Made by a program: the position numbers and the translations under genes. This document shows, piece by piece, positions 11,347-44,755 of a DNA stretch of 64,000 nucleotides (position 1 is the stretch's first letter; each line of letters begins with the position of its first letter). This DNA is from Candidatus Forterrea multitransposorum CG_2015-17_Forterrea_25_41 (lineage in GTDB: Archaea > Iainarchaeota > Iainarchaeia > Iainarchaeales > CSSED10-239), in contig CP045477.1 of NCBI GenBank assembly GCA_009392915.1, forward strand, positions 704,001 through 768,000, read 5' to 3'. The notes beneath the pieces were generated by a model that was not told the origin of the DNA, ran no database searches, and was given only the letters and a program-made list of their open reading frames with translations.

Positions 11347-13860
11347 CTAGTCTAACATTTCGATAGCGTTGATTAATTCTTTTGCAGCGTCAGCTGTGTC
11401 TGCAGCAGAGAATCCAGCAACAACGATGTTACCGTTTTCAACAGAACCAACAACAAATTGACCAGCTTCTGTTAAGAATTCATCAGTAATTCCACTAGCT
11501 AAAGAATTAACTAAGTGTCCACCAACGATTATCTTAGCACCAGCACTTGTCATTGTTTCGTTGTCAAGGTATACAATTCTTTGTGTACTTGCATTCCAGT
11601 TAGCAGGTGTCATAGCTGTCATTTCTTCTCCACCAGTTACTGTTGAAGTGATTAATTTAGCTGAGATCATACCGTCTTCTGTTTCAACAACTGTACCAGG
11701 AGTAGTTAAAACAAGTTCTCCACCGTTAAGTGTAGTTTCTGAAGAAACTCCTCCACCTATGAAGATTTGTCCTTTTAATTGTTTCTCAGGAAGAGTAAAC
11801 ATTGGATACCCGTCTTCTATTGTTGCGTAAGCACCGTATGTTGTATAACCGAAAACTAAATCTGAATCGTTACCTTTATCTGATAAATCAAATGTGTCTG
11901 ACCCATTAGCACCGTATACTTGCTTATAAGTACCTAAAAAGTCATTATCATTTAAGTTAACCATATCTCCTGTGTATGCATCCATATACATTGTAATAGA
12001 ATCTGATCCATTAGTTACAGTTATTGCAGCAATAGATTCAAAATCATCATTTGCATAATTATCTGTAAATGTTGCACTATCTACTCTATCACCAATAAAT
12101 GAAGCATCAGATATAAATCCAGCAGCAGTATTAGTTGAATCTATTCCAGAAACATCCCATGTATAACCTGTGTCTCCAATTCCTAAATCAACTGTTTGAT
12201 TATTTTTCAAACCCATTGCAACTGTTTTAATTGTATTATAAACTGCATCTGCAGAAGCTGTTTTTGCAACACCAGGAGCTACCATCACAGTATACTCTAC
12301 ATCTCTAGCATCGTTGTTATATAAAGGAATTCTTAAATTTGTATATAATCCTGTATTAACATCTTGAACACTACCAGATTTAGAATAATAATCAGGAGTA
12401 GTTGAAACCCATGTTGGAGTTGATCCATCTGCACCAGTTAAATACTTACCATCTGAATCTTCTAATTGAACTGTGAAATTAACATCATTAGCAGCAGCAG
12501 TATAGAACTTGAAATACAATTCTTTACCATCTAATAATAATGAAGTGTATGAATCTCTAGCAGTTGTTGCTTCGTCGTAATCATACATGAAAACTTCGTG
12601 ATCTTTTCTATCAGCATCTGTAAAGTAGATGTAATTATCTTGAGCATAGAATTCTGCTGATTTTTCTTCAGTTAAACCTAAGAAATCAATTGAACCAAAT
12701 CCTAAAGGAAGCTCTACTGAATCTCCAACTCTTAATGAGTCATCATTAGTAAATCTTAATGATGTATCATCTGTAGATAAAGTGATTTTTGTTAAATAAC
12801 CAGAAGCACCAGGTGCTGAAGGAGTAAAATCAACTTTCCATAATTTATCATCTTTATTAGGGAAATCAGTTATTTTTGACCCATTCTTTAACTCTAATTT
12901 TCCTGAAGATCCAGTTATTACTTTAACAGTAGTTGCGTAAACAGTATCAACATCGATATTAGATTCTAAGTAGCTATCAAATATCTTTGTATCACCAGTT
13001 CTGAATACATCAGTTGCAACAACACTACCTGTTGAATCTTTTAAGTTCATTTCAGCTTGGTATCTGTTTGTTGTGTCACCAGTATCTAAAATATTTACAA
13101 CTTCAATTGTGTAATCGTCAGCAGTAAATGATGCACCAGGAGCATATGTTTGAGTAGCTAAGTTTTGAACTAATTTTAATGTTGTACCATCGAATGAATC
13201 AACAGTGTAGTTCTTACCCATTAAATTAAATTTAAGTCTTGGGCTTGCACCAGCATCTGTGTAATCTCCTTTAATACCTTCATCAAAATCAACAGAGTAT
13301 GATATAGCACCTTTGTCGATTGAAGCAACTAAATCTTTGACATCTTTATCTTTATTAAAGTAAACATTTGCTGTTACTGACAACTCATCAGAAATTGTTA
13401 AAGTACTTGCACCAGCGTGATCTGAATCAGCAGATGTATCTGTCTTATATAACATAGAATAATCTGTTTCATCAATTACTTTTGCAGTATTAGTCATATC
13501 ATTTAATGTGTAATTATCTGATAAGTAACCGTCACCTGATATTGTTGATGTACTTGAAGAACCTACTTCGATAGTTACGTCTTGTAAAGAAGCTCCGCCA
13601 ACTGTACCTGTAGTTGTGTATGCTTTCTTTCCGATAGCAGCAGCTATGTTACCAGCCCATACTACATCAACTGGTTGTGCCATAGAACCAACTACAACAC
13701 TAACACTTGGAACACCATTATTATACATTGTATCTTTAGTGATGTTCATAGAAAAGTTATCTGCACCAACGTTAGCAGCAACAACTGATCCAGCTAAAAG
13801 AGCTGAAACACCTAAAGCAGCTACACCAGCAACAACTTTTTTCATGTTTATATTTTTCAT
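11347..13860 (-). CDS. Large secreted Thr/Ser/Gly/Asp-rich surface protein (candidate S-layer or major cell-surface protein)
   Basis: Signal peptide MKNINMKKVVAGVAALGVSALLAGSVVAANVGA. 837 aa. Locally elevated GC and biased codon use (ACT/GGT/GCT) suggest high expression. A 690-bp non-coding leader lies upstream. Confidence 0.4.
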   Translation of the reverse strand: MKNINMKKVVAGVAALGVSALLAGSVVAANVGADNFSMNITKDTMYNNGVPSVSVVVGSMAQPVDVVWAGNIAAAIGKKAYTTTGTVGGASLQDVTIEVGSSSTSTISGDGYLSDNYTLNDMTNTAKVIDETDYSMLYKTDTSADSDHAGASTLTISDELSVTANVYFNKDKDVKDLVASIDKGAISYSVDFDEGIKGDYTDAGASPRLKFNLMGKNYTVDSFDGTTLKLVQNLATQTYAPGASFTADDYTIEVVNILDTGDTTNRYQAEMNLKDSTGSVVATDVFRTGDTKIFDSYLESNIDVDTVYATTVKVITGSSGKLELKNGSKITDFPNKDDKLWKVDFTPSAPGASGYLTKITLSTDDTSLRFTNDDSLRVGDSVELPLGFGSIDFLGLTEEKSAEFYAQDNYIYFTDADRKDHEVFMYDYDEATTARDSYTSLLLDGKELYFKFYTAAANDVNFTVQLEDSDGKYLTGADGSTPTWVSTTPDYYSKSGSVQDVNTGLYTNLRIPLYNNDARDVEYTVMVAPGVAKTASADAVYNTIKTVAMGLKNNQTVDLGIGDTGYTWDVSGIDSTNTAAGFISDASFIGDRVDSATFTDNYANDDFESIAAITVTNGSDSITMYMDAYTGDMVNLNDNDFLGTYKQVYGANGSDTFDLSDKGNDSDLVFGYTTYGAYATIEDGYPMFTLPEKQLKGQIFIGGGVSSETTLNGGELVLTTPGTVVETEDGMISAKLITSTVTGGEEMTAMTPANWNASTQRIVYLDNETMTSAGAKIIVGGHLVNSLASGITDEFLTEAGQFVVGSVENGNIVVAGFSAADTADAAKELINAIEMLD

Positions 13861-15539: not shown

Positions 15540-17927
15540 TTAGTAAGGCAAAGCAGCATTGTTATTTGCAAGAAGACATAAACAAACTTTTAAATCTACT
15601 TGAGAAGTAAACTGAGTAACTCCATCGTTTGTAGTTAAAGTTAAAGTTCTTGTAAAACCTGCAGGGAAATTACCTAAATAAGTTAAACTTCTATTTGGTT
15701 CTATTAAAGAAGGTTGTGAAACTTTAAATAATTTAGAAGAAATATTTGTTTTAGGTAAAGGTTTAGTTGTTATTGATAAATTATTACTCTTTACAGAAGT
15801 GTAAGGAGGAGACGCTAAACCTAAGTCATATGGACTTGCAGAAAAATTACAATCGTTTGAAATTATTTGAGAACCATACTTCCAAACACAACTTACATTA
15901 TTATAATTATTATAAACAGCAACAGTAAAATCTAAATCTTCTTTGTAAGGATAACTTCTGTTTTCTTCAGGACTTAAAACTTCATGATAATGTGCTTCTG
16001 GCATTGTAACATTAATTGTTACAATATCTGTGTCTTGTCTTGAAAAATCATCTGTTACTATTAATTTAATTTCATATTCTGAAGTTTCTAAATTTAATTG
16101 ACCAGGAGTTTTATTTAAGTTACATTGGTTTGAAAAATTAGTATAAGAACTATTACCTTGTTTTTTGTGTTGCCATTGACAACTAGAATCGCCAATTTCA
16201 TTTTCTATAGAAGAAGAAAATGAAATAACATCATCAATCTCATAAGAAGAATTGTTTTCTGGAGAAGTGATTTCTGCTTCAAGGTCTAAAGGTTCTGTAA
16301 CTGTTAAATAAACATCAACAGTTGTTCCACTTTCTGATAAACCTTCAAGACGGATACCACTATCAACTAAACCATTGTAGGTTGTTGAAGTGGTGTCTCT
16401 TATTACTTGACAATTTGGATCGATTCTTGAAACATCATCAAATTTACCTTCTACAATTTCTGGGTTACAACCACCAAAATCATCCGGAAGTTCGGTTGTA
16501 TATAGATCACTATGAGTTCTAGAAGGGCTAGTATAAGCATCTAATATATTTTGTTCGAAAATAATACCAGGATGACTTATTGTATCATCATAATAATCAT
16601 CATCTTCATCGTACATGATACTGTTAAAAGCTATATCCCCAGCATAACGATCATCAATATAAGCTTCATCAACATGTAAAACATCTATTCCACCATTTGC
16701 ATTAAAAACTGGTGTAGTTACACCAAATAAATATCTATCTAAAGAAGTATCAGAAATATATCTATTAGTGATTAAAAAATATTCTCGATCACCCATGGTA
16801 TCAGGGTTGTTTAAAAGATAAGCATCATTACTAGTATCATAAGGACCTAAACTATAAATGTCTGCTTGAGAAGCAGAATTTATAACAACAGGATTAAGCC
16901 AGCCAAAAAAGAATTTTGACCAAGAATCAAAATTAACTGGTTTTTTATGATCTTGACCAACATCAATATCAAAAACCATTACAGTGTGACCTCCAAGACC
17001 AGAGCCTAACTGAATACCAGTATAACTAAGTTCATAAAGATCTGGAAGACCTAAAACATGAGCAAACTCATGAACAGCAGAATCAATACTTAATCTACAG
17101 TCTGTTGGATAATTAAAATAATTTATCCAGTTTTGACAAATAGATTGAAGATGACGAGAAGGAACTACAGCAACATTACCATAAAGCATACCTTGTATTT
17201 CTAAAGTTGTTTCTTTATAAATTCTTGCTTGAGAAATAATATTATTACCCATCTCTTGAGCAGGAAGACCAGCATGAACTAAAACAACACCATCAAGTCT
17301 ACCATCACCATCAGAATCATATTGTGTGAAATCAATTGAATTACTTCCAGTTCCAAAAAGATTTAATGTTTCAACAATAAGTTCATGAACATTATTGTTG
17401 TTATAATAATAACTATAATTGTGAGAAACAGTTCTCCAATCATAAACATCATATGAAATATCTAAAGAATCATAAGAATTGTGTTTATAAAATTCACTTA
17501 CACTTATACCTTCACCAGATAAATAATTATTTGAATTATAAACATCATCATAAACTGATGCTGTTAAACCTGCATCAGGAGAAAGATCAGGAAATTTAAC
17601 TAATAAAACAGGAATACTATAATTACCGGTTGTTGGAGAAGTTCCTATTTTATTATCTAAGGTTGTTGTTTCAAAATCTCTTGTAGAAACATTAGAAGAA
17701 TAATTTAAACCTAAACTTGCAGGAGTTTCTCCTGGAGGAAGACAAATACTTCCTGAACAATAACTTGAAAGAATTGGTGGAATTTCAAAGACAGGAGGTT
17801 TAGATTTTGTAATTGGTTTTATAACTGCAATATTTTCTGCACTTGAAGAAGCTTCTTTAGAATAAACTAAAGGAAGAAGTAAAAGTGAGAAAATTATTAT
17901 AACTACTAAAAATATTCTTTTATCCAT
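15540..17927 (-). CDS. Secreted M6 (immune inhibitor A-like) zinc metalloprotease with C-terminal beta-sandwich domains
   Basis: Signal peptide. HEFAHVLGLPDLYE matches the M6 HExxHxxGxxD motif. 795 aa. The C-terminal region is Ig/PKD-like. Confidence 0.55.
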   Translation of the reverse strand: MDKRIFLVVIIIFSLLLLPLVYSKEASSSAENIAVIKPITKSKPPVFEIPPILSSYCSGSICLPPGETPASLGLNYSSNVSTRDFETTTLDNKIGTSPTTGNYSIPVLLVKFPDLSPDAGLTASVYDDVYNSNNYLSGEGISVSEFYKHNSYDSLDISYDVYDWRTVSHNYSYYYNNNNVHELIVETLNLFGTGSNSIDFTQYDSDGDGRLDGVVLVHAGLPAQEMGNNIISQARIYKETTLEIQGMLYGNVAVVPSRHLQSICQNWINYFNYPTDCRLSIDSAVHEFAHVLGLPDLYELSYTGIQLGSGLGGHTVMVFDIDVGQDHKKPVNFDSWSKFFFGWLNPVVINSASQADIYSLGPYDTSNDAYLLNNPDTMGDREYFLITNRYISDTSLDRYLFGVTTPVFNANGGIDVLHVDEAYIDDRYAGDIAFNSIMYDEDDDYYDDTISHPGIIFEQNILDAYTSPSRTHSDLYTTELPDDFGGCNPEIVEGKFDDVSRIDPNCQVIRDTTSTTYNGLVDSGIRLEGLSESGTTVDVYLTVTEPLDLEAEITSPENNSSYEIDDVISFSSSIENEIGDSSCQWQHKKQGNSSYTNFSNQCNLNKTPGQLNLETSEYEIKLIVTDDFSRQDTDIVTINVTMPEAHYHEVLSPEENRSYPYKEDLDFTVAVYNNYNNVSCVWKYGSQIISNDCNFSASPYDLGLASPPYTSVKSNNLSITTKPLPKTNISSKLFKVSQPSLIEPNRSLTYLGNFPAGFTRTLTLTTNDGVTQFTSQVDLKVCLCLLANNNAALPY

Positions 17928-17985: not shown

Positions 17986-19023
17986 TTAATTTAAACCAAG
18001 AGAAAAACACACTTCTCCATTTGAGTTTGTAACACAAACTGGTTCTAAATCATAGTATTCAGATAAATCTGGATGACTTACATAAAATGTAGCATCTCCT
18101 TCTGAAGAACTATCTGATGCTGAAAATCTATTAAGACAAAGGTTTACAGAACCATTAGAATTTGTTTGTGCACTACAAAGTGCATATTCTGGAGCATCTT
18201 GAACAGGAAGTGTAAACTCTAACATCTTTTCATCAGAATTACCATTTTGATCTATTCCTGTAAAATAAAAATTAAAAACTCCTTCTTGATTACAAGAAAT
18301 ATTACTTGCAAGTTCTTCTTCTGGATTAAGACTTGAGAAAGTATGTATGAATAATCCTTCTGCTGTTGCAGGAACTTGAGTTCCATCGTAACTACATGCA
18401 TTACTTAAAACAATTTCATTAATTGCAGAGTTATATGTTTTTACAACTAAACTAACATCAACTAATTGTTCTTCAGTTGAATTAAAATCTATACTTAAAG
18501 TTGTAGGATAAGGTTGATTTACATTTGCACTTGCTGTTGGATGTGGACTTAAATTTAAAATAAATGTATTAGGAAGAGAATTTCCATATTCACAAGAAGA
18601 ATAATCTATTTCACAAGAAACACAATTATAAACATCATTAATTAAAAAATAACCAAATGGAAGATTATCTATACAACCTTCAGAATCTGGACCTAAAACA
18701 ATAGAACCATTCACCCATTCACATTCCTCGCCAGTATTTAAAACATTATCTCCACAAACACCACCTGGAATTGGGTCAGGATCATCATTACCTACTCCTC
18801 CAGAACCACCAGCATTACCATCCCCACCGCCTACAGAACCTAAGCCATCACCATCTCCTGATGGAATATAGTTAGATAGATCTACTTCTGGTATATCTTG
18901 AGTATTATCTATTTTTTTATTAATGTTAGATAAATAAAATGTTGCAAAAACAACACTACCTAAAACTATAACACCTATAATAATTATTGCTTCTAAAGAA
19001 ACCTGTCCTTTATCTCTAATCAT
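17986..19023 (-). CDS. Class III (prepilin) signal protein with Gly/Asp linker and a Cys-rich extracellular domain
   Basis: MIRDKGQVSLEAIIIIGVIV carries the G|Q-x3-E pilin processing motif. Then GDGDGLGSVGGGDGNAGGSGGVGNDDPDP. More than 20 Cys follow. Confidence 0.5.
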   Translation of the reverse strand: MIRDKGQVSLEAIIIIGVIVLGSVVFATFYLSNINKKIDNTQDIPEVDLSNYIPSGDGDGLGSVGGGDGNAGGSGGVGNDDPDPIPGGVCGDNVLNTGEECEWVNGSIVLGPDSEGCIDNLPFGYFLINDVYNCVSCEIDYSSCEYGNSLPNTFILNLSPHPTASANVNQPYPTTLSIDFNSTEEQLVDVSLVVKTYNSAINEIVLSNACSYDGTQVPATAEGLFIHTFSSLNPEEELASNISCNQEGVFNFYFTGIDQNGNSDEKMLEFTLPVQDAPEYALCSAQTNSNGSVNLCLNRFSASDSSSEGDATFYVSHPDLSEYYDLEPVCVTNSNGEVCFSLGLN

Positions 19024-19228: not shown

Positions 19229-19879
19229 ATGACAAAAAAAGAAAACAATTTAATGTATATTAAAATTCTTTTAGGTGCAATCTTAGCAGTTTTAGTTTTA
19301 TTATTAGTATTGAATCTATCAAACAATAATAAAACAGCAGATGCTTTTTTAAAAGAAACAACAAGTAAAACAGATAACCAAGCAAATCATTTTTTAGGAA
19401 ATGAAGATGCACCTTTAGTAATGTATGAATATTCTTCTTTTACATGTCCTTTTTGTAAAAGATATCAAATAGATGATCAAACTTTTGAAACTATTAAAAA
19501 AGAATATATAGATACAGGAAAAATTAAATATGTTTATCAACACTTTGTAAGAAACGAAATAGATATTAAAGCTGCAAATGCTGCTGAATGTGCAGGAGAA
19601 CAAGATATGTTCTTTGAATATAAAAAGAAACTTTATGAAAATCAAACAGATTTACCAAAAGAAGAATTTTCAAAGTATGCACAAGAACTTGATTTAGATG
19701 TTACAGCTTTTGAAAGTTGTCTTGCAGAAAACAAATATGTAAACAAAATAACACAAGATAAACAAGATGGTGTTAATAAAGGAATTAGTGGAACACCAGG
19801 ATTTATTGTTGGTAACCAAAGAATATCTGGTGCTCAAGACTATCAAGTCTTTAAAGCAGCAATAGATGAACAACTATGA
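19229..19879 (+). CDS. DsbA-like thioredoxin-fold thiol:disulfide oxidoreductase (membrane-anchored)
   Basis: N-terminal TM segment. CPFC active site in YSSFTCPFCKRYQ. Confidence 0.65.
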   Translation: MTKKENNLMYIKILLGAILAVLVLLLVLNLSNNNKTADAFLKETTSKTDNQANHFLGNEDAPLVMYEYSSFTCPFCKRYQIDDQTFETIKKEYIDTGKIKYVYQHFVRNEIDIKAANAAECAGEQDMFFEYKKKLYENQTDLPKEEFSKYAQELDLDVTAFESCLAENKYVNKITQDKQDGVNKGISGTPGFIVGNQRISGAQDYQVFKAAIDEQL

Positions 19880-23176: not shown

Positions 23177-24337
23177 TTTTAAAAAAAAAGAAAGAAAACA
23201 AAATTGTGTTGCATAACTCTTTTTAAAAGTATTGTCTAACCTATTTTATTACTAGATAAAGGAGGTTAGACAATATGAATATTAAGAACGAAAAGATTAA
23301 TAAAAGGAACTGGTCAAAGATAAATTATGGAAAAACAAGACAAATCTTGTTTTTACTAGATAAAAACATTATTTTTAGTGAAAATGAAAGACTAGTTTCC
23401 CAAAATAAAAACAAACCAGGAAGACAATTTATATATAGTGATAGAATAATAGAACTATTAATTGATCTTAAAAATTATTTTAAATTTGATTATCGTAAAC
23501 TACAGGCATTCTGCCTGTTGTTTAATAATGTTATAAAAATAAAAACACCTGACTTTACAACTATTTGTAGAAGAATGCACAAATTAGAATTATTTCTAAA
23601 AAATATAAAAACAAAAAAAGAACCAACCTTTATAGCTATAGATGGTTCTGGACTTCAAACTACTAATCGAGGAGAATGGCTTAGATTAATACACAAAAAA
23701 GGAAAAATAAACTTAAGAAATGGATTTGTAAAATTAGTGATTGCAACAGATGTTGCATCTGGAGAAATAACTGGAGTGTATATTTCAGATGATTCTGATT
23801 TTGAAAATAAAAGCTTATCAGATTTATTATACCAAACAATAAATAATCAAAACCAAGAAGTCAAAGGACTTCTTGGAGATGGGGCATACGATTCTTATGA
23901 TAACTTTGATATGCTTGATGATATGGGAATAAAACCAATTATCAAAATCAGAAAGAATGCAATTACAACAGAACCTAATGACGATTATTTAAAAAGAAGA
24001 AGAAAACTTGGAAAAAAGAAAAAAATAAAAAGAATTGAAGTTGCAAAAAAGCAACTTAAAAATGTAGATGACTGGAAACAAAAAAATGAGTATAATAAAA
24101 GGTGGGTTGTTGAATACACGTTTAGTGTATTCAAAAGACTATTCGGACATAGTGTGTACTCTAAAAGAAAGAAATATGTCAAAAATGAAGTAATTTCTAA
24201 AGTAAATTTGTATAATAAATTATTAAATATCAATTAAGAAAAAAATAAAATGAATTAAAAAAAGAAATAAGCTAAAAATATTGTGTAAAACACAATATTT
24301 GTGCAACACAATTTTAAAAAAAAAGAAAGAAAACAAA
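23177..24337. mobile_element. IS-type insertion element with inverted termini (~TTGTGTTGCA, about 23204-23214 / 24301-24311), flanked by identical 26-bp direct repeats
   Basis: The direct repeat TTTTAAAAAAAAAGAAAGAAAACAAA lies at 23177-23202 and 24312-24337, immediately outside the inverted ends. Confidence 0.55.
23275..24237 (+). CDS. DDE transposase (IS4/IS5-like)
   Basis: Blocks IAIDGSGL, LLGDGAYDS and VVEYTFSVFKRLFG give the D, D, E/K pattern of IS4/IS5 transposases. The RBS AAAGGAGG is embedded in a 10-bp-stem hairpin TTGTCTAACC(23233-23242)/GGTTAGACAA(23264-23273). Confidence 0.6.
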   Translation: MNIKNEKINKRNWSKINYGKTRQILFLLDKNIIFSENERLVSQNKNKPGRQFIYSDRIIELLIDLKNYFKFDYRKLQAFCLLFNNVIKIKTPDFTTICRRMHKLELFLKNIKTKKEPTFIAIDGSGLQTTNRGEWLRLIHKKGKINLRNGFVKLVIATDVASGEITGVYISDDSDFENKSLSDLLYQTINNQNQEVKGLLGDGAYDSYDNFDMLDDMGIKPIIKIRKNAITTEPNDDYLKRRRKLGKKKKIKRIEVAKKQLKNVDDWKQKNEYNKRWVVEYTFSVFKRLFGHSVYSKRKKYVKNEVISKVNLYNKLLNIN

Positions 24338-24366: not shown

Positions 24367-25641
24367 ATGCAAACATTTAATTGTGATCTTCATTATCACT
24401 CTCCATATGCAGCCGCTTGTTCTAAAAACATAACCATACCTTTACTTGCACAAGAAGCTAGAAAAAAAGGTTTAGATATTTTAACTACAGCAGACATCCT
24501 ACACCCTGTTTGGCTTAATCACGTTAAAGAAAACTTAATTGAAGAAAATGATTGTTTTAGATACAAAGAAATCATTGAAGGAAAAAAAATATATTTTCTC
24601 TTAGGAACAGAAGTTGAAACTGAAGGAAGAGTACATCATCTTCTTTATTTTAAAAATTTTAAACATATTGAAGAATTTAAAAAAGAAATTAAAAACTTTT
24701 GTCAAGATATGTCTGTTTATGGAAGTGGAAGAACAAAACTTAAAACTACTGCAGAAAATTTATTAAACCTCTGTAAAAAACTAGAAATAATTATTGCTCC
24801 TGCACATGTCTTTACCCCTTATTTTGGAATATTTGCACATTTTAATTCTTTAAAAGAGGCGTATGGTAAAAACTGGGAATATGTTAAGTTTATTGAACTT
24901 GGACTTTCAGCAGATACAAAAATTGCAAACACAATTCCAGAACTTAAAAATATTAAATTTTTTTCATTTTCAGATTCTCATTCTCCTTTAAGTTATAGAA
25001 TAGGGAGAGAATATATTTCTCTTGAGATGGAAAGAGCAAACTTTTCTTCTTTTAAAGATCTACTTGAAAATAAAAAAGGAAAATTACTTTATAATGTAGG
25101 ATATAACCCAAGAGAAGGAAAGTATGGTTTAACTGCTTGCTCTAAATGTTATCAACATTATACTTTAAAACAAGCTATTGAAAATAAATGGAAATGTTCT
25201 GTTTGTAAAAAAAGTATTAAAAAAGGAGTTTTAGAAAGAGCAGAAGAAATGGCAGCCTTACAAGGTAACTCTTCTTTAAAACAAATAACAAAAAGACCAG
25301 ATTATAAATATCTAATGCCTTTAGCTCAAGTTATCCAGATTGCAATTAATCAAAAAAATATTAATCATAAAAAAGTTATTGAAATTTATGATAAGTTTAT
25401 TGAAAAGTATACAGAGATTGAAACTATGCAAAGTATTCCTTTTGAAAAACTAAAAGAGATTGATGAAAATATTGCAAAGTACATTATTTCTTTTAGAAAA
25501 GACTTAGTTGTTTTCCATCCTGGCGGTGGAGGAAATTACGGAACTCCATTTATATTTTTCACAAAAGAAGAAAAAGAAAAAAAAGAAAAAGAAATTAATG
25601 AAAATCTTTATCTAAAAGATCTTCAAAAAAAATTATTTTAA
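24367..25641 (+). CDS. PHP-domain phosphoesterase with C-terminal Zn ribbon (COG1379-like)
   Basis: N-terminal CDLHYHSPYAA (PHP HxH motif). C-terminal CSKCYQHY...CSVCKK. Confidence 0.45.
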   Translation: MQTFNCDLHYHSPYAAACSKNITIPLLAQEARKKGLDILTTADILHPVWLNHVKENLIEENDCFRYKEIIEGKKIYFLLGTEVETEGRVHHLLYFKNFKHIEEFKKEIKNFCQDMSVYGSGRTKLKTTAENLLNLCKKLEIIIAPAHVFTPYFGIFAHFNSLKEAYGKNWEYVKFIELGLSADTKIANTIPELKNIKFFSFSDSHSPLSYRIGREYISLEMERANFSSFKDLLENKKGKLLYNVGYNPREGKYGLTACSKCYQHYTLKQAIENKWKCSVCKKSIKKGVLERAEEMAALQGNSSLKQITKRPDYKYLMPLAQVIQIAINQKNINHKKVIEIYDKFIEKYTEIETMQSIPFEKLKEIDENIAKYIISFRKDLVVFHPGGGGNYGTPFIFFTKEEKEKKEKEINENLYLKDLQKKLF

Positions 25642-25653: not shown

Positions 25654-28600
25654 TTAAACAGGGATTTGTACTCTTACAATTACAACTCCAGAACCACCTG
25701 AAAGACCTCTTGTACCACTACCAGAAGCTTTTCCATCCCCACCATTACCAGTATTTGGAGCACCTGCAGAACCACTATTTTCACGAGAATTACCTCCTGC
25801 AGCATAAATTACATTTGATCCAGTTATGTCATTTGAGGTACCAGGTCCTCCTACACCATATCCAGGAGGAGATGCCCAACAACTACCAGAACCTCCAGAA
25901 CCAGTACCACCTCTATTTTGAGGAGGACAAGCATAATTTGTAGAAGATGATCCTCCAGAACCTCCAGATGCTATTGTTCCATTAAAGAAAGAATACCCAC
26001 CTGCAGTTCCTGCTGTATTATAAGATCCACCAGATCCACCAGATCCCACTACAACATCATAAGTGTCAGCAGAACTGGATACAAGTCCATAATATCTATA
26101 TTGGCCGGCATTTCCACCATTACCATTATAACCACCACCACCACCACCACCGCCGACGACTAAGTATTCTAACATATACATTGGGAAGTCTATATTTATA
26201 GTGTAAGTTCCAGTACCACTTCTAAATTTATGAACACGGTATGCATAACCTCCTGAAATTCCCTCGGTTACTGTTGCTGTACCTGTGTGAGTAGTAATTA
26301 TTTTTCTAACCTTTAAAGTGTAGGTTGCAGAGGTTGCACCTTGTGTAACATTAACAGTAATTGTTTTTAAATTACCATCAGAAATGCTTATAGGGCTTGA
26401 TGCTGATCCAGATGAAACAGTTGAACCATTTACAGTTATTGTTCCAGTACCAGTAGGAGTTACAGTAATACTGTTAGTTGTACTAATTAAATAAAAAATA
26501 TCATTATAATTATATGTATTTGAATTAAAAGCAAATCCAGAAGGATTATTACTTAATTCTAAATTTGAAAGACCAGCAGGAATTGTTACGTTTATACTGC
26601 TTTGACTTCCCCAACAACCGTTTGTAGATCTTGCTCTAAAATAATAGGTGCCATTAGAATTTACTGTTTGAGGAGTGCCTCCTAAAGAGGTACTAGTACC
26701 CATTGATGTAGTTCCTTGGAAATATATAGTTCCACCTGAACCACCAGTTGCAGAAATGGTTGCAAACCCAGGACCACTATTTTGAAGAGATATACTTACA
26801 CTTCCTGGTTGAGAAAGTATAGTTGCAGTAACTGGAACTCTTGTTGTTAAATTACAAGTTCCGCCTGTCACTCCTACATAATAAGTTGTTGTCCAATTTA
26901 GAAGTGGAGTTGTAAAACTATTTCCTGTTGCAATTGGAGAACCACCAGTTGATGAAGTATACCATTCAATAGTTCCGCTTGTTGTAGTTGCACCTAAAGT
27001 TACAGAACCATTACCACATCTTTCTCCAGGAGTAACATTTACTGTTGGTGGAGATGCAATAGTCACTGTTTTTGAAACACAACTTGTTGTATTACAAGTA
27101 CCTGAAAGTCTTGCATAATAAGTTGTAGTTGAGGTTGGACTTACAGTTAAACTTGAAGAAGATCCTAATGAAATTGCAGTCCCACAAGTTCCAGCATACC
27201 ATTGATATGTAGCACCAGTTCCAACAGTTCCACCTATTGCAGTTAAAGTAGTTGGAGATCCAGAACATACACTTGTATTTCCAGTAATTGAGGTTGGAGC
27301 AACTGAAGGTGTATTAAATGAAACAGTTGCACTTCCTTGAGTACCCCAAGTACCAGAAGTAGATCTTGCTCTAAAATAATAAGTTCCAGGACTTGAAACA
27401 ACTTCTGATGTTGAAGCATTCATTGTACTGGTACCATTAGAAGTTGTGCCTTGATAATAAATTGTTCCATTAGCACCACCAGTTGCAGTTAAAGTTGCAT
27501 TAGCATTACAAGTTGCCCCACCACCTAAAACAGTTACTGGATCAGGAGTTATATCTACATTATAATAACCTTGAACTAAATCACTTGAAGTCCATCCTGT
27601 TTTATAAGCAATTGCTTTTAATGGAGTTGGAGAGTTAATTAAAACACTTTCTCCATGATTAATAACATTTACTCCACCTTGAACAGGTGTAGAGTTGTCT
27701 AAAGTATAACTGATTTGTGCTCCAGGCACAGAAGTAATAACTACATTTTGTGCAGTTGAATAAGTTCCAGGTAAAGGACTAAAGGTTGGTGAATTTAGTT
27801 TAAAAGTATAATCTGCTTGAGAAACAGAACTTTCAAGATAACCAGACTTGTAAACTATTGCTTTTAAAGTTTGATTTCTGGTTACAGGGATTGAAGTTCC
27901 GAGATATTGAGTTGAACTTGATGTTGGAGTATCACCATTGGTTGTGTAATAAATACTATAAGGAAGAGGAGTTGTAGTTGATAGATCTACAAAAATATTA
28001 TTATTGTATGTTCCTGAAGGACTTGAGAAAGTAGCAGGATTTGCAATTAATTGAACAGTGAAAGTTTGTGTGGCAACAGGACTGGTTGAATAACCAAAAG
28101 CATAACAAACTGCTTTTAAAGTTGTAGTGGATGTAAAATTAATTGGAGAAGAATAAACTGTTCCATCATCTCTTGTTGGATCAGTTCCATCAGTTGTATA
28201 TCTTATGGTGCTTGAAGGTGTGGAACAACTTAAAGTAACATTAACACTATTTGTGTGGGTTCCACCGTTTGGTGAAAAGGTAGGAGTTGCAGCAGGAGCA
28301 TTTATAGTGTAAACACCAGTTGAAACATCACTTGAAGTCCAACCTGTTTTGTAAGTGATTGCACGTAAAGTAGAGGTTGAAGTGATTGGAACAGTTGACT
28401 CTCCACTATTGATTTGTGTACCAGTTGTCTGTGTTGGAGTTGCTCCATTTATAGTGTATCTGATTTGGGCACCAGCAACAGAAGTTATTGCTACAGATTG
28501 AGAATCTGAATATGCACCAGGAGAAGGACTAAAGGTTGGTGCATTTAATTTGAAGACATAATCTGCTTGAGTGACAGAACTTGCAAGATAACCAGGCTTA

Positions 28601-30858
28601 TAAACAATTGCTTTTAAAGTTTGATTTCTGGTTACAGGGATTGAAGTTCCGAGATATTGAGTTGAACTTGAAGTTGGAGTATCTCCATTTGTTGTATAAT
28701 AAATACTATAAGGAAGAGGAGTTGTGGTTGATAGGTCGACAAAAATATTATTATTGTATGTTCCTGAAGGACTTGAGAAAGTAGCAGGACTTGCAATTAA
28801 TTGAACAGTGAAAGTTTGTGTAGCAACAGGACTGGTTGAATAACCAGAAGCATAACAAACTGCTTTTAAAGTTGTAGTGGATGTAAAATTAATTGGAGAA
28901 GAATAAACTGTTCCATCCTCTCTTGTTGGATCAGTTCCATCAGTTGTATATCTTATGGTGCTTGAAGGGGTTGTACAACTTAAAGTTACATTAACACTAT
29001 TTGTAAAAGTACCACCGTTTGGACTAAAGGCAGGAGTTGCAGCAGGAGCATTAATAGTATAAACACCAGTTGAAACATCACTTGAAGTCCAACCTGTTTT
29101 GTAAGTGATTGCACGTAAAGTAGAGGTTGAAGTGATTGGAACAGTTGACTCTCCACTATTGATTTGTGTACCAGTTGTCTGTGTTGGAGTTGCTCCATTT
29201 ATAGTGTATCTGATTTGGGCACCAGCAACAGAAGTTATTGCTACAGATTGAGAATCTGAATATGCACCAGGAGAAGGACTAAAGGTTGGTGCATTTAATT
29301 TGAAGACATAATCTGCTTGAGTGACAGAACTTGCAAGATAACCAGGCTTATAAACAATTGCTTTTAAAGTTTGATTTCTGGTTACAGGGATTGAAGTTCC
29401 GAGATATTGAGTTGAACTTGAAGTTGGAGTATCTCCATTTGTTGTATAATAAATACTATAAGGAAGAGGAGTTGTAGTTGATAAATCAACAAAAATATTA
29501 TTATTATAAGTTCCTGAAGGAAGAGAAAAGATTGCAATATTAGCAGGAAGAGTAACATTATAATCTGCTTGAGATATTGGACCGGTATTTGAACCTACAG
29601 CTGCCATTGCCTTAATAGTTACAGGAGATGATATGTTAATTGGACTTGAATAAACTGGACTTAAAAGAGTAGGATCAAAACCACTTGTGGTATAATGAAT
29701 AGTTGCACCAGGATTTGAATTACTTAAAGTAATATTTTGTATTGTAGAATAATCTCCTGCAGGAGGATTAAAAATAATAGGATCTAAAGGTACAAAGAAA
29801 CTATAAGTAAAAGTTGAAACTGAACTATCATTATAATTTTCTCTACAAGCAATTGCTTTTATGGTAGAGTCTGCAGAAACATTTATTGGAGAAGTATATT
29901 CTGAAAAGCTACCTGAACAATCAGGAATAGAAGAATCTAAAGTATAATAAATAGTTGAAGAAGAGGTTGCACTTGAAAGAACAACATTAATTGGATCTTC
30001 TAAATTTATAGAACTATCAGGAGTTGCAGTTACTGAAGATACAGTATCATAAGAAACTGTGTAAGTTCCAGAAGCAATTCCAGATTTAACACTGTTATAT
30101 TCAGAATATGCCATAATAGTTGTTCCAGGACTAATTGAAATAGGAAGCCCTAAAGTATAAGGTATACCGCTAGTATAAGGATCACTACCATCTATTGTAT
30201 AATAAACAGAAAAACTTGGATCAGATACATCTAAAGTTATAGTTGATGGAAAAGAAAAATAATTATAAGAACCAGGAACAGGATTAAATAATGGTCTTGA
30301 AATCACTGTTGTTTTAGGACCACTATCAGACCAATTAAAAGAATATCTAGAAGATTTTTTGGATTGATTATTTTTTGAAACTTCTATAGATAAATAATAA
30401 GAATCTCCACAAGAACCATTACCTAAATCAATATCTGAAACAATTAAATTATTTGTAATAATTGGATTTAAGTTATCTTCGGGAATAATATTCCCATCTA
30501 AAATAACAGTGTAATCTCCCTCATTTAAAACATCATTATCTTTATTTTCAATAATTAATTTATAAGTACCCTCTCTCGATAAAGGTTTCCAAGAAAAAGA
30601 TAAAAGCCCAATTTTTCTTAAAGTTCCACCTACATCAATAGTTTCACAATCTAAATAATTAGCTTTAACAGAAGTTATTGTTGGAGGTAAAGGACCATCA
30701 GTTGAAGAAGAAACATCATCAACTTGTTCTGATGCTGAATCTCTTGATTGACCACCTAGAGAAACTAAAATAGTTACAATAATTACAGCAACTAATACAC
30801 CACCACCAATCAATATTAAAGTTTCTAAATTACCTTGACCTTTTTTTGATGGTAGCAT
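25654..30858 (-). CDS. Giant (1734 aa) pilin-signal adhesin-like protein: class III signal plus pilin domain, chitobiase-C-type repeats (tandemly duplicated), Ig-like repeats and a Gly-rich C-terminus
   Basis: N-terminus MLPSKKGQGNLETLILIGGGVLVAVII...GGQSRDSA...CGDSYYLSIEVSKNNQ is homologous to the 43929 pilin. Repeats carry IRYTTDGTDPT motifs. Ig-like repeats carry C..G..TLTA.GG...YQWY...TYYAR..G.C. The tail has GGGGGGGG and further Gly-rich segments. Confidence 0.6.
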   Translation of the reverse strand: MLPSKKGQGNLETLILIGGGVLVAVIIVTILVSLGGQSRDSASEQVDDVSSSTDGPLPPTITSVKANYLDCETIDVGGTLRKIGLLSFSWKPLSREGTYKLIIENKDNDVLNEGDYTVILDGNIIPEDNLNPIITNNLIVSDIDLGNGSCGDSYYLSIEVSKNNQSKKSSRYSFNWSDSGPKTTVISRPLFNPVPGSYNYFSFPSTITLDVSDPSFSVYYTIDGSDPYTSGIPYTLGLPISISPGTTIMAYSEYNSVKSGIASGTYTVSYDTVSSVTATPDSSINLEDPINVVLSSATSSSTIYYTLDSSIPDCSGSFSEYTSPINVSADSTIKAIACRENYNDSSVSTFTYSFFVPLDPIIFNPPAGDYSTIQNITLSNSNPGATIHYTTSGFDPTLLSPVYSSPINISSPVTIKAMAAVGSNTGPISQADYNVTLPANIAIFSLPSGTYNNNIFVDLSTTTPLPYSIYYTTNGDTPTSSSTQYLGTSIPVTRNQTLKAIVYKPGYLASSVTQADYVFKLNAPTFSPSPGAYSDSQSVAITSVAGAQIRYTINGATPTQTTGTQINSGESTVPITSTSTLRAITYKTGWTSSDVSTGVYTINAPAATPAFSPNGGTFTNSVNVTLSCTTPSSTIRYTTDGTDPTREDGTVYSSPINFTSTTTLKAVCYASGYSTSPVATQTFTVQLIASPATFSSPSGTYNNNIFVDLSTTTPLPYSIYYTTNGDTPTSSSTQYLGTSIPVTRNQTLKAIVYKPGYLASSVTQADYVFKLNAPTFSPSPGAYSDSQSVAITSVAGAQIRYTINGATPTQTTGTQINSGESTVPITSTSTLRAITYKTGWTSSDVSTGVYTINAPAATPTFSPNGGTHTNSVNVTLSCSTPSSTIRYTTDGTDPTRDDGTVYSSPINFTSTTTLKAVCYAFGYSTSPVATQTFTVQLIANPATFSSPSGTYNNNIFVDLSTTTPLPYSIYYTTNGDTPTSSSTQYLGTSIPVTRNQTLKAIVYKSGYLESSVSQADYTFKLNSPTFSPLPGTYSTAQNVVITSVPGAQISYTLDNSTPVQGGVNVINHGESVLINSPTPLKAIAYKTGWTSSDLVQGYYNVDITPDPVTVLGGGATCNANATLTATGGANGTIYYQGTTSNGTSTMNASTSEVVSSPGTYYFRARSTSGTWGTQGSATVSFNTPSVAPTSITGNTSVCSGSPTTLTAIGGTVGTGATYQWYAGTCGTAISLGSSSSLTVSPTSTTTYYARLSGTCNTTSCVSKTVTIASPPTVNVTPGERCGNGSVTLGATTTSGTIEWYTSSTGGSPIATGNSFTTPLLNWTTTYYVGVTGGTCNLTTRVPVTATILSQPGSVSISLQNSGPGFATISATGGSGGTIYFQGTTSMGTSTSLGGTPQTVNSNGTYYFRARSTNGCWGSQSSINVTIPAGLSNLELSNNPSGFAFNSNTYNYNDIFYLISTTNSITVTPTGTGTITVNGSTVSSGSASSPISISDGNLKTITVNVTQGATSATYTLKVRKIITTHTGTATVTEGISGGYAYRVHKFRSGTGTYTINIDFPMYMLEYLVVGGGGGGGGYNGNGGNAGQYRYYGLVSSSADTYDVVVGSGGSGGSYNTAGTAGGYSFFNGTIASGGSGGSSSTNYACPPQNRGGTGSGGSGSCWASPPGYGVGGPGTSNDITGSNVIYAAGGNSRENSGSAGAPNTGNGGDGKASGSGTRGLSGGSGVVIVRVQIPV
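27571..29820 (-). repeat. Tandem 750-bp (250-aa) in-frame coding repeats, about 2.3 units near-identical at the DNA level, inside the giant adhesin gene
   Basis: tgaaacatcacttgaagtccaacctgtttt recurs at 28321 and 29071. Hundreds of bp are identical between 27790-28560, 28321-29070 and 29071-29530. Confidence 0.7.
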
Positions 30859-30891: not shown

Positions 30892-31563
30892 TTAATTAAT
30901 ATAAATAAAAAATGATTTAAATCCCTCTTGTTGTAAAAACAATTCTCCTGAACATTTATCATATGAAAGCATTAAATTTTTCATAAAGTCAAGTGAACTA
31001 TTTAAAAATTCAGGATTAGACGCATCTAAATTACAAGAACCTTCTTTAGAAATTAAATGTTTTGAAGACTCATTTAAACCAACTTCCATTTCTGCAATAC
31101 CTTCTTCAGTATAACCATCATCTAGATACATTTGTTTTTGAGCATCTAAAAAAGATGTATTATGATCTAAAAGTTTTAAAGAAACTATACATTCATTAGA
31201 TTCATTAAGTCCTTCAATAGAATATTCTACAGAATAATTATATCTACTACCTGCTGAAGGATAGTCAATAGATTCAGTTGAAGAGAAAACTACATTTTCT
31301 TGACAAGTTGAAAAATTATTTGAAAAACAAGCAAAGTCTTCACAATATGTGTTAGGATCAACTACTTCTTCTGGAACATGAGGTTGATTTTCATCTCCCG
31401 CACCACCATTAGGATTTATTGTATCTATATCATCTGGTAAATTTTCAAAAGAAGAATCGTCAATAACATCTTCTTGTGGAGAACTTACAAGAACAAAAGC
31501 AACTGCAGCTGCTAAAACTAGTAAAACTAATAAAATTATTATAATTGGTCTCAAAAATATCAC
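30892..31563 (-). CDS. Signal-anchored Cys-containing acidic secreted protein, hypothetical
   Basis: N-terminus IIIILLVLLVLAAAVAFVLV. 223 aa. Immediately upstream of the giant adhesin on the same strand. Confidence 0.35.
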   Translation of the reverse strand: MIFLRPIIIILLVLLVLAAAVAFVLVSSPQEDVIDDSSFENLPDDIDTINPNGGAGDENQPHVPEEVVDPNTYCEDFACFSNNFSTCQENVVFSSTESIDYPSAGSRYNYSVEYSIEGLNESNECIVSLKLLDHNTSFLDAQKQMYLDDGYTEEGIAEMEVGLNESSKHLISKEGSCNLDASNPEFLNSSLDFMKNLMLSYDKCSGELFLQQEGFKSFFIYIN

Positions 31564-41159: not shown

Positions 41160-41522
41160 TTAAATACATTCTAAACTAATACTAATATTATCAAACTTTG
41201 TTCTATCTAACAAACCATTAGTTAGTGTTGTGTAATTATAATCATCAGGAACTATTGGACAATTAGTTTCAAGTCCTTTATTTAAATAAACAATCATATC
41301 TAAGTTATCATTATCAAATACATAATTAATAGTGTTAATTGAATAAGAATGATTATATCCAGCGATATATTTTAATGTTAAATTTTTTGTTTTATGCATA
41401 GCAATATTAATATCAAAAGTTGATGTTAAAGTTGCAACTACAGTTATAGCTATAACCATTACAATTAAAAGAATAATTAAAAACTCTAAACTAGTTTGAG
41501 CTTTTTTATCTTGAAGCAACAT
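41160..41522 (-). CDS. Minor pilin (class III signal)
   Basis: MLLQDKKAQTSLEFLIILLIVMVIAI: A|QTSLEF. Confidence 0.55.
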   Translation of the reverse strand: MLLQDKKAQTSLEFLIILLIVMVIAITVVATLTSTFDINIAMHKTKNLTLKYIAGYNHSYSINTINYVFDNDNLDMIVYLNKGLETNCPIVPDDYNYTTLTNGLLDRTKFDNISISLECI

Positions 41523-41982
41523 CTATATCTCCAGCAATAGTTTTTTCAACAACTAAATAATTATTAAACCCTGGTCCAACTTCATCACAAGTAAAATCTA
41601 CATCTCCAATAGATACTAATTTTTCAAAAGTACAGATGTTTGTAGTAGAATCACATGCAGAGATATTAGGTTTAGGATTTTGAGAAGAAATTGATATTTG
41701 GTATTCAATAATGTTTGTTGCAGAATCACAGTTTATAATTTTTGCATTATCAGGAAGATAAAAATAAACTAATCTTTTACCATATCCAGGAGAACTTGCA
41801 AAAGATGCTAAATCATCTCCAAGTTTATCAATAGATTGTTTTGTTTGAGTAATATTATAAATATCACCTACAATATTTTCTGAAAAAACAATATTTGGAT
41901 ATATGATTGCTTGAAAAAATAATAATAAAATAGATATTAAAATAATGTATTCAATTGCAATTTGTCCTTTTATATTTTTCAT
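41506..41982 (-). CDS. Minor pilin (class III signal)
   Basis: MKNIKGQIAIEYIILISILLLFF: G|QIAIEY. Confidence 0.55.
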   Translation of the reverse strand: MKNIKGQIAIEYIILISILLLFFQAIIYPNIVFSENIVGDIYNITQTKQSIDKLGDDLASFASSPGYGKRLVYFYLPDNAKIINCDSATNIIEYQISISSQNPKPNISACDSTTNICTFEKLVSIGDVDFTCDEVGPGFNNYLVVEKTIAGDIDVASR

Positions 41983-42013
41983 TTAAAATTCCTTCCTTTT
42001 ATATTATTTAAGC

Positions 42014-43135
42014 TTAAAAAATAAACCAAATAAAATCTCCAAAAATATTTAATAAAATATACGCTATTAACACAGAAGGGGTAAATGGAATTGTTTTTTT
42101 TAAAACTATCTCCTTCTCTAAATTATGTTTATATGAACTCTTTAAAAAGGTTATGTCTTCAGGTAAAAGACCCCCTATTTTCCTAGAATCTATGATTAGT
42201 TTATTTGATTTTTGTTTAGAGGTATATTCTTTTAAATAATCAATAAAGGATATTTTTTTTTCAATAACTTTTTTATTTGATAAATAATAATTATTTAAAA
42301 CAACATCTCCTTCTTTTAAATCATTTATTTTTTTACTAAAAGTTAATATCTTTGAAGAAATTATTTTATAAAAAGTTATACTTAAGAAAATAATAATAAT
42401 AGTTATAGTAATTATTAATAAATCATAGAAAACAAATATTCTTTTTGAATAAAACAAAGAATATCCAATTAATAATAAATAAAGCCCTAAAACTAAATAA
42501 TTATAGTGAAGAATATTTTGTTTTTCAATTTTTCTAAAAAACAAGATAAACATTATAGATAATAAAAAATAAATTAAAAAAGGGATATACATTTCAAAAA
42601 TATTAAAAAAAGAAGAAATTAAGAAAAGTATTAAAATAGAACTTACTAAAGAAAATAATGTGTTTTTTGTTTTTAATAAATTTATAAGTATTCTATAGTG
42701 TCTTTTAAATATAAATAAATAAATAGAACTAATTAAGAGAATAGGTGCTGTAGAAAGAATAGCAGTTAGTATTAAAGTCAAAGAAAATACAGGGATTGTT
42801 ATTATTTTAAAAGAAAATAAAAAGCCTAAAAAATTAATATTAAAAGGATTTAAGAAAGAAATTGCAGAAAACAACTTTAAATCACCACCTGCAAAGAAAC
42901 CAAACTCCCAAAGAACATACCCTACAATAAAGGTTATACCAAAAGATAAAAAAGCATTAAGAAGAATAGATATTTTTGAGAAATAAATTGTTTCTATTAT
43001 TTTAAAAATAACTCCAATAATTAATAAATATAATACTAAAAAATTTGGAACAATTCTTTTTTTAATATCATAATAACTTGCAAATAATAAAAATATCAAA
43101 GTTATTGAAAATGCAAAAAAAGGAAAGTTAAACAT
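42014..43135 (-). CDS. Prepilin peptidase (A24 family, PibD/FlaK/TadV-like) with an about 130-aa C-terminal extension
   Basis: Asp23 in SYYDIKKRIVPN. Second Asp in FFAGGDLKLF (GxGD-type). Multi-TM. 373 aa versus the typical ~250. Confidence 0.6.
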   Translation of the reverse strand: MFNFPFFAFSITLIFLLFASYYDIKKRIVPNFLVLYLLIIGVIFKIIETIYFSKISILLNAFLSFGITFIVGYVLWEFGFFAGGDLKLFSAISFLNPFNINFLGFLFSFKIITIPVFSLTLILTAILSTAPILLISSIYLFIFKRHYRILINLLKTKNTLFSLVSSILILFLISSFFNIFEMYIPFLIYFLLSIMFILFFRKIEKQNILHYNYLVLGLYLLLIGYSLFYSKRIFVFYDLLIITITIIIIFLSITFYKIISSKILTFSKKINDLKEGDVVLNNYYLSNKKVIEKKISFIDYLKEYTSKQKSNKLIIDSRKIGGLLPEDITFLKSSYKHNLEKEIVLKKTIPFTPSVLIAYILLNIFGDFIWFIF

Positions 43136-43160
43136 ACATTATTTTCTCAACAAAAATTAT

Positions 43161-43349
43161 TTATAAAGAAGCTAAAATATTATCTCTATAAGTTAATATT
43201 TTAGATTTTGCAACAGTTATAAAACTATTTAAATTTAATATAACAATACCTGTTGTAATTACTAAAATCATACCAAAAACAATCATGATTAGATATTCAA
43301 TAGAGACTTGACCTCTTTGGTCATTTAAAAGTAAATTTAATCTATTCAT
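43161..43349 (-). CDS. Flp-size pilin (62 aa)
   Basis: NDQRGQVSIEYLIMIVFGMILVI: G|QVSIEY. Confidence 0.55.
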   Translation of the reverse strand: MNRLNLLLNDQRGQVSIEYLIMIVFGMILVITTGIVILNLNSFITVAKSKILTYRDNILASL

Positions 43350-43372
43350 AATATATAATCACTAAATCTTAA

Positions 43373-44579: not shown

Positions 44580-44753
44580 TTAACTATTATTAACTATTGA
44601 TTGATAGTCAGTTGCAGTCTTAACATTCTTTGCAGAAGTTTGTTTTACAAAAATTCCAACAGTTAATGCAACTAATATAACAACTCCAGTAATAATTATA
44701 AACTCTAAAGAAACCTGTCCTTTATTATCTTTTATTAATCTTCTTAATTTCAT
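44580..44753 (-). CDS. Short Flp-type pilin, 57 aa (not in ORF track; candidate major pilin)
   Basis: Reverse-strand ORF: ATG at 44751-44753, stop at 44580-44582. MKLRRLIKDNKGQVSLEFIIITGVVILVALTVGIFVKQTSAKNVKTATDYQSIVNNS. G|QVSLEF motif. Confidence 0.55.
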   Translation of the reverse strand: MKLRRLIKDNKGQVSLEFIIITGVVILVALTVGIFVKQTSAKNVKTATDYQSIVNNS

Positions 44754-44755
44754 AT

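Follow-up and report, generated by a model that had tools for sequence, protein, structure and literature searches.

Within a 64,000-nucleotide stretch of the genome of Candidatus Forterrea multitransposorum CG_2015-17_Forterrea_25_41 (contig CP045477.1, positions 704,001 to 768,000; hereafter the window), one very large open reading frame (ORF) raises the question of why a protein should begin in the manner of a type IV pilin and then continue as a long chain of further domains. The gene, at 25654..30858, is intact from ATG to stop and encodes a giant modular protein of 1734 amino acids (aa) with a class III signal, pilin-like N-terminus (positions are those of the window, and features lie on its (-) strand unless marked (+)). 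Its source lineage, Iainarchaeota, belongs to the DPANN archaea. The answer that we favor, and consider reasonably probable, is that the giant protein is a modular type IV pilin of archaeal type that joins a pilin "carrier" to an adhesin, with processing by an EppA-like peptidase and display by Epd-like machinery, likely at the pilus tip. Its probable use, from its place on a pilus, would be to seize a specific partner cell or surface.

When the first 203 residues were used as a BLASTP query, residues 6-178 of the giant protein aligned with residues 6-172 of a 172-aa pilin encoded at 43929..44447 (44% identity; E 1e-42), in an alignment that spans the whole of that pilin and extends beyond its hydrophobic N-terminus. 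A first-pass annotation had proposed this relationship from a series of shared motifs (KGQG-LE-L-LIGG-VL-AVI, GGQSRDSA, a Cys motif, FSW-PL and CGDSYYL-I--KNNQ); all of these fall inside the alignment, and the similarity has the statistical support that the proposal needed. A second pilin of 155 aa (43373..43840; Pfam Class_IIIsignal) is a more distant paralogue of the same module (28% identity; E 5e-8).

The extreme N-terminus has the form of an archaeal pilin. A short basic leader ending in Gly, MLPSKKG (predicted; aa 1-7; 30838..30858), precedes a hydrophobic stretch, QGNLETLILIGGGVLVAVIIVTILVSL (aa 8-34; 30757..30837), which would form the mature helix with Glu at +5 and provides the sole Kyte-Doolittle peak above 1.6 in the protein. 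The motif KKG/QGNLE, followed by TL, is in register with the pilins of the locus, such that predicted cleavage after Gly7 would leave Gln at +1 and Glu at +5. In Methanococcus, the reported preference among EppA substrates is for Gln at this position. Residues K6, Q8, L11, E12, L14, L16-G19, V21, L22, A24 and V25 are invariant across eight aligned family members. The lone hydrophobic segment (aa ~9-40) carries Lys-Lys on its N-side and is net acidic on its C-side, which argues for an N-in/C-out orientation with all else extracellular; this orientation, together with downstream domains of extracellular types, speaks against an uncleaved internal transmembrane (TM) helix with a cytoplasmic remainder, the outcome that the first-pass annotation had named as fatal to its proposal. 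Beyond the helix lies the pilin head (aa 55-185; 30304..30696), an FN3/Ig-like beta-sandwich with conserved Cys71 and Cys150, which AlphaFold2 modeled confidently from the family alignment (aa ~55-185; predicted local distance difference test score, pLDDT, ~80-95).

Machinery suited to such a protein is encoded on the same strand by a type IV pilus locus at 41160-48856. With one assembly ATPase (46841..48856; Pfam T2SSE, E 1.5e-48; FlaI/TadA-like by NCBIfam), two TadB/TadC-like platform genes (45659..46804 and 44756..45652; Pfam T2SSF, E ~1e-15 for each), six class III signal proteins and an A24-family peptidase, this locus has the layout of system 1 among archaeal type IV filaments (TFF), and it is syntenic in a related contig (L002). 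The prepilin peptidase (42014..43135) combines an A24 domain with an archaeal C-terminal domain (Pfam Peptidase_A24 and Arc_PepC) and retains both catalytic-type Asp residues (D23 and GGD85); its best full-length NCBIfam match is EppA (E 4e-13, below the curated cut-off), and we term it EppA-like. In addition to the 172-aa pilin (Class_IIIsignal, 29.3 bits) and the 155-aa pilin, the class III signal proteins comprise a candidate major pilin of 57 aa (44580..44753; Class_IIIsignal, E 7.8e-8), a 62-aa pilin (43161..43349; Class_IIIsignal, E 0.0046, below the Pfam cut-off) and proteins of 158 aa (41506..41982) and 120 aa (41160..41522). The 57-aa and 62-aa ORFs fall below the usual ORF-length cut-offs; by analogy with short pilins of the Flp/Epd type they may be the real shaft subunits, in which case the 155-172-aa pilins, and by extension the module of the giant protein, may be of the minor-pilin kind. 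The archaeal C-terminal domain of the peptidase is accompanied in the window by archaeal housekeeping genes encoding the RFC small subunit and RtcB.

Two further features of the window may be mentioned. A second T2SSE-family ATPase of 770 aa (5438..7750 (+); E 3e-17) adjoins a gene for a nucleotidyltransferase-domain protein and has no platform or pilin genes adjacent to it. The window also encodes another large class III signal protein (345 aa; 17986..19023) that has a Cys-rich domain and a linker rich in Gly and Asp but no Pfam match, and that is flanked by a secreted M6/InhA-like metallopeptidase (15540..17927) and a DsbA-like thioredoxin (19229..19879 (+)); the same peptidase may serve this region as a second cluster of surface proteins.

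What follows the pilin head is a stalk of 11 CHB_HEX_C_1/Fn3_assoc domains (aa 190-1105; 27544..30291; Pfam E 2e-131), in which the hallmark motif [IV]xY[TS]xxGxxP likewise occurs 11 times. The first-pass annotation had described this part as three 250-aa units with motifs of CHB_HEX_C type. The motifs were correctly recognized, and a search with domain hidden Markov models, which it had suggested, recovered CHB_HEX_C_1, Ig_7 and Gly_rich_2 by Pfam; the count of units is to be revised, as only two are full. Unit A (aa 447-696; 28771..29520) and unit B (aa 697-946; 28021..28770) contain three domains each and are 97.6% identical in protein and 96.7% identical in DNA, while the third is a diverged partial copy of ~2 domains with 87% DNA identity over 300 nt. 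Tandem Repeats Finder, whose longest period of 500 is shorter than the 750-nt unit, reported nothing relevant. Between the window protein and a 99%-identical relative (P0003), the same substitutions occur in both units (V518/V768 to T and V539/V789 to I), a pattern that points to gene conversion or concerted evolution of the tandem repeat. The length of the stalk also varies within the family: in the related proteins P0004 and P0136, a single 250-aa unit takes the place of the two in the window protein.

Because CHB_HEX_C_1 occurs in glycoside hydrolases, and many of the top database matches carry enzymatic or other domains, the protein might be read instead as a secreted glycan-degrading enzyme or as a wall protein of the S-layer type. 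We regard this as very improbable. The main Pfam matches over the 1734 aa are the stalk, the Ig block and Gly_rich_2, and no catalytic domain of any kind was found among them; CHB_HEX_C_1 is itself a beta-sandwich without catalytic function that this protein contains only in repeated form, and a separate S-layer protein is encoded at 11347..13860.

The stalk is succeeded, as the first-pass annotation had anticipated, by Ig-like repeats. The Ig-like block (aa 1106-1429; 26572..27543) contains Ig_7 domains (Pfam E 1.4e-21) flanked by two copies of a "TIYYQGTTSxGTS" domain, with direct repeats (D3/D4) 735 nt apart. It leads into a beta-sandwich neck (aa 1430-1520; 26299..26571) that is probably Cadherin-like, an assignment made through the ortholog P0030, which carries a precomputed PF12733 match and aligns with the neck at 57% identity; in the window protein, no Pfam match to this domain reached E<=0.01. 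From general domain sizes (~4 nm each), we estimate that the ~16 sandwich domains could reach ~60 nm if extended. The 837-aa protein at 11347..13860 matches an S-layer outer domain (S_layer_C), as does a gene near the ortholog on contig L085, and with an S-layer gene in the window a pilus and a giant adhesin must pass or overtop the S-layer.

Neither the length of the gene nor its internal duplication appears to be an assembly artefact, since independent assemblies contain a 1734-aa protein that is 99% identical and has the same neighbors, on contigs of at least two JGI samples and in ENA and NCBI; one such NCBI/ENA/JGI contig measures 839,632 bp, and the window protein differs from the database copy at 10 residues. 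The G+C content, ~25% across the window, rises to 0.35-0.36 at 26001..30000 with a strong positive GC skew. Recent horizontal transfer was considered as the cause and discarded: the G+C content at third codon positions of the giant gene (0.097) is like that of neighboring genes and the rest of the genome, and the excess derives from codon position 2 (Ser, Thr, Gly, Pro, Ala). Two other candidate attributes of the protein were likewise rejected, namely enrichment in N-glycosylation sequons (31 observed against 31.8 +/- 4.6 in shuffles) and an NCBIfam match to "DUF499_antiphage", a spurious repeat match scoring 44.8 bits against a cut-off of 1200. An insertion sequence (IS)-type DDE transposase (DDE_Tnp_1; 23275..24237 (+)) lies two genes from the giant gene.

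What had been annotated as a Gly-rich C-terminus is indeed glycine-rich; rather than a low-complexity tail, it is predicted to be a folded, TNF-like/glycine-rich domain of the receptor-binding type found in phage tail fibres, and hence a putative tip (aa 1521-1734; 25657..26298). Pfam Gly_rich_2 matches aa 1549-1730 (E 1.4e-16; 61.6 bits against a cut-off of 24.3), and the predicted fold matches solved phage tail-fibre tips: the cyanophage Pam3 tail fibre (7ypx; match score 13.8, 164 residues, 24% identity), mycobacteriophage Bxb1 gp33 (12.7, 159, 27%) and Bxb1 gp29 (11.5, 142, 20%), followed by the glycine-rich domain of ALK (~6.9, ~120, ~19%). Among PHROG profiles, family 2295 matches the tip at E 2.4e-14, and family 863, of the tail category, matches it at E 8.7e-4 and P0030 at E 1.7e-6. 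A word-indexed search with the Gly-rich domain gave two weak matches and was swamped by low-complexity candidates; the literature retrieved on PF21722/Gly_rich_2 consisted of plant papers only, and no gene resembling the dedicated chaperone that helps phage tips to trimerize was recognized next to the giant gene.

Comparison of close relatives shows that divergence is concentrated at this distal end. Between P0136 and P0004, the pilin module, stalk and Ig block are 96-99% identical, the neck 73% and the tip 47%; between P0005 and P0004 the corresponding values are 98-100%, 100% and 72%. Tips are therefore only 47-72% identical between proteins that are 96-100% identical over the pilin module, stalk and Ig block, which amounts to at least three tip alleles on essentially one stalk. 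The window protein is 86-95% identical to both P0004 and P0136 over the pilin module, stalk and Ig block; its neck and tip are 70% and 48% identical to those of P0004 and 97% and 95% identical to those of P0136, which has a short stalk and yet a tip like that of the window protein. Such a pattern would be expected of a specificity determinant replaced by recombination. In phage TNF-like/glycine-rich tips (Pam3 gp24-like), conserved glycine stems support a variable distal tip. Between the window protein and P0004, Gly is conserved at 43 of 57 positions in the tip and 56 of 150 non-Gly residues are identical; judged from these aligned residues, the phage signature of Gly stems and variable segments is present in the giant protein as well.

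The pilin module is itself reused with other partners. An exhaustive HMMER search with the module profile, run against 1.84 billion representative proteins, returned 611 matches at E<=1e-3 and 72 at E<=1e-10. Most full-length matches are stand-alone pilins of 140-200 aa, and at least 14 representatives of 350-1433 aa carry the module at the N-terminus of a longer protein, with extra modules that include CHB_HEX_C_1 repeats, RCC1 beta-propellers, Laminin_G_3 (a ConA-like lectin), PKD, Flg_new and GLUG. Individual members illustrate the range: P0006 (1539 aa) ends in RCC1 repeats; P0008 (1433 aa) has a different C-terminal domain without family assignment; L001 and P0140 bear another C-terminal module on the same carrier; and P0030 (970 aa) lacks the Ig block and combines the stalk with a cadherin-like domain and Gly_rich_2. 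P0030 is a positional ortholog with the same flanks, in which the convergent MJ0043_C gene that follows it is 71% identical to the window gene at 24367..25641 and the upstream gene is 44% identical (E 1e-40) to a 223-aa gene of the window (30892..31563) located 33 nt upstream of the giant gene. In the product of this conserved partner, a TM anchor at the N-terminus is accompanied by an acidic linker and a domain containing Cys; the product has no Pfam match and could be an accessory factor or chaperone. The giant protein accordingly has the composition of a modular pilin, with its module (aa 1-189) followed by 11 copies of CHB_HEX_C_1, Ig_7 and Gly_rich_2, on a carrier that is combined elsewhere with other effectors. 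A word-indexed search with the 189-aa N-terminus found only two proteins and missed the near-identical N-termini of long proteins; its count is no measure of rarity, as word-indexed counts understate families whose members are domains of long proteins.

Some family members depart from this plan. P0148 (354 aa; L020, 1907..2347) has an insertion of ~180 aa inside the pilin head and no C-terminal graft, recalling pilins with inserted domains such as ComZ and GspK. In two other metagenome-assembled genomes, a single in-frame TAA interrupts the pilin head while the frame continues into further domains (L001, 9530..10804, at aligned position ~137; L005, 10001..10898, a TTA-to-TAA change at position 145); these genes could be pseudogenes, contingency switches or the product of sequencing errors.

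Several results weigh against reading the giant protein as a pilin with a phage-like adhesive tip. On its first 45 aa, Pfam Class_IIIsignal (PF04021) scores 16 bits (E 0.011), short of the gathering threshold of 23.7 bits that its 172-aa paralogue passes; P0030 carries a precomputed PF04021 match. AlphaFold2 modeled the N-terminal helix with low confidence, Foldseek with the pilin head found nothing at E<=0.001, and the archaeal pilins 8gi2 and 8fj5 match the head fold weakly (E 0.025-0.07). The head is a generic FN3/Ig sandwich, a modeled fold compatible with archaeal pilins, which have Ig-like heads, and not diagnostic of them; the argument for a pilin module consequently rests on sequence homology to the locus pilins, including that of 155 aa. 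A PDB sequence search with the pilin profile gave nothing significant, the best match being a 45-aa PilA (E 0.11). For the tip, the model is of moderate quality (pLDDT 68, with residues 119-194 poorly predicted), PDB sequence searches with the C-terminal 305 aa and with the tip profile gave nothing significant, and tblastn of the tip against 50,697 phage genomes returned no match. Finally, the giant gene is not part of the pilus operon: it is located 11 kb downstream, beyond genes for TctA, a JAB protein, GrpE-DnaK-DnaJ, PRPP synthetase, RtcB and the 223-aa membrane protein, and, judged by eye, a promoter of its own is probable. Class III signal peptides of archaea are also found on surface proteins that are not part of filaments.

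These last points lend themselves to a different account, in which the class III signal serves only for export and processing and the N-terminal helix anchors, in the cytoplasmic membrane, a free-standing adhesin fibril that reaches through the S-layer. Such an arrangement has been proposed for other archaeal non-pilin class III substrates. It would fit the position of the gene outside the operon, the constancy of the conserved 223-aa membrane protein, rather than pilus genes, as its neighbor, the ability of a ~60-nm stalk to clear the S-layer encoded in the window without a pilus, and the occurrence in the window of the 345-aa class III protein, which apparently has no pilin head. It does not readily explain why the entire pilin head has been kept, at 51-95% identity across orthologs, while the C-terminal modules have been swapped, a conservation hard to reconcile with a mere anchor; Glu5 is conserved also. 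We consider this account, the main alternative, possible but unlikely.

Under the modular pilin interpretation, the precursor would be inserted in the membrane N-in/C-out through its single hydrophobic segment, and the EppA-like peptidase of the nearby locus would cut off MLPSKKG, leaving Gln1 and Glu5 on a helix joined to the FN3-like head. The machinery of the locus, with its single ATPase and two platform proteins, would then take up the giant protein in the manner of the 172-aa paralogue. The giant protein would enter first and come to lie at the pilus tip, or else be sparse along the fibre, because pili grow from the base and an appendage of ~1,550 residues would clash inside the shaft. 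From there a jointed stalk of ~16 beta-sandwich domains would project, by ~60 nm if extended, and end in a TNF-like/glycine-rich head of the type that phage tail fibres use on host receptors, which would recognize, on a partner cell or surface, a ligand that is specific to the strain. The stalk would lengthen or shorten by gain or loss of the 250-aa unit, and specificity would shift by replacement of the tip cassette. Cleavage, incorporation into the pilus, tip location, the ligand and a role in host recognition are in each case what we infer.

A variant of this scheme would make the giant protein a frequent subunit of the shaft, giving a "bottle-brush" filament coated with stalks. For bacterial modular pilins, Raynaud et al. 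(PMC8179133) leave room for a location in the filament body, given a flexible linker. No secretin-type gene was found in the pilus locus, and archaea have no outer-membrane secretin to limit subunit size. The linker between the head and the first stalk domain is nevertheless short (aa ~179-190), an appendage of ~1,550 aa on each subunit would crowd a shaft that rises by ~1 nm per subunit, the dedicated 57-aa and 62-aa pilins are better suited to form it, and synthesis would be very costly for an organism with a ~0.8-Mb genome. On these grounds we find a shaft role improbable, and retain the tip, or a sparse distribution, as the expected location of the modular pilin.

Pili-like fibres have been seen bridging ultrasmall cells and their hosts. 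For the adhesins by which DPANN archaea, presumed to be dependent on other cells, may locate and keep their partners, the gene family described here offers a concrete candidate, with a carrier pilin module, a stalk of variable length and a hypervariable tip resembling phage receptor-binding domains. In metagenomes, the alleles of the tip could be used as markers to pair DPANN strains with their hosts. We tentatively extend this to a more specific suggestion, which we hold to be less likely than not: that the giant protein determines the host specificity of a DPANN archaeon living as an episymbiont, as a "tail fibre" at the pilus tip whose phage-type head is exchanged as a cassette and whose reach is tuned by repeat copy number. 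Were this so, DPANN-host pairing would evolve by the same logic as phage host range, using a domain common to phage tail fibres and archaeal pili.

Modular pilins are already known in bacteria. Raynaud et al. (PMC8179133) described carrier pilin modules with grafted effector modules, modeled at the pilus tip and mediating adhesion, in a census keyed on the bacterial N-terminal motif IPR012902 whose extreme case has 860 residues; the archaeal-type N-terminus of the giant protein would be invisible to a census of that kind. The resemblance to Streptococcus sanguinis PilB, with its vWA module, and PilC, with its lectin module, lies in the order of parts (an N-terminal class III pilin module, a short linker and modules not specific to pili), in the use of one carrier with many effectors, ConA-like lectin among them, and in the predicted function of adhesion from the tip. 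The differences are that the giant protein is archaeal, has a PF04021-type signal with Gln at +1 instead of the N-methyl-Phe motif and an FN3-like head, and at 1734 aa, twice the bacterial extreme, bears a stalk of ~16 domains and a phage-like tip in place of a single grafted module. What appears to be new, and would extend the modular pilin principle from bacteria to archaea, is thus a family of archaeal (DPANN) proteins on a Q+1 pilin module with an FN3 head, of unprecedented size, with a multi-domain stalk subject to copy-number variation and, at the distal end, a predicted receptor-binding head of the phage tail-fibre type that is allelically hypervariable. We found no archaeal modular pilin of comparable size described in the literature, although adhesin-like proteins, as well as class III signal proteins that bear binding domains, do figure near such loci in surveys of archaeal TFF.

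Other large pilus components provide partial parallels. CofB of enterotoxigenic Escherichia coli (ETEC) and TcpB of Vibrio cholerae are large minor pilins of the tip that initiate or cap the pilus and contact a ligand (PMC8179133); like the giant protein they place beta-rich extra domains after a pilin module, but they are bacterial type IVb proteins of ~500 aa, and we found no sequence relationship. Since both form trimers, as does the TNF-like Pam3 gp24, one might imagine that the tip of the giant protein trimerizes too, an analogy that is pure speculation. The phage tips themselves (Pam3 gp24; Bxb1 gp33 and gp29), which are related to T4-type gp38 adhesins and the ALK glycine-rich domain, belong to virion proteins, in contrast to a tip that forms the C-terminus of a cellular pilin fusion. 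Among archaeal TFF, system 1 is marked by two platform genes and has been reported in some DPANN archaea; the locus in the window shares with the Methanococcus maripaludis Epd system its single ATPase, two platform genes, many pilins including very short ones, EppA-like peptidase and Gln+1 substrates. What has been mentioned as adhesin-like at Epd loci, by contrast, consists either of separate proteins or of class III signal proteins that are small and have one binding domain, and no giant fusion of pilin, stalk and tip has been described among them. Adhesins of the PilY1/PilC type, and their PilY-like counterparts among archaeal TFF, are also large and modular and are thought to be displayed at the pilus tip. 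They are non-pilins that dock on minor pilins by way of a beta-propeller or DUF2341, neither of which was matched by Pfam in the 1734 aa of the giant protein, whereas the giant protein carries a pilin module of its own.

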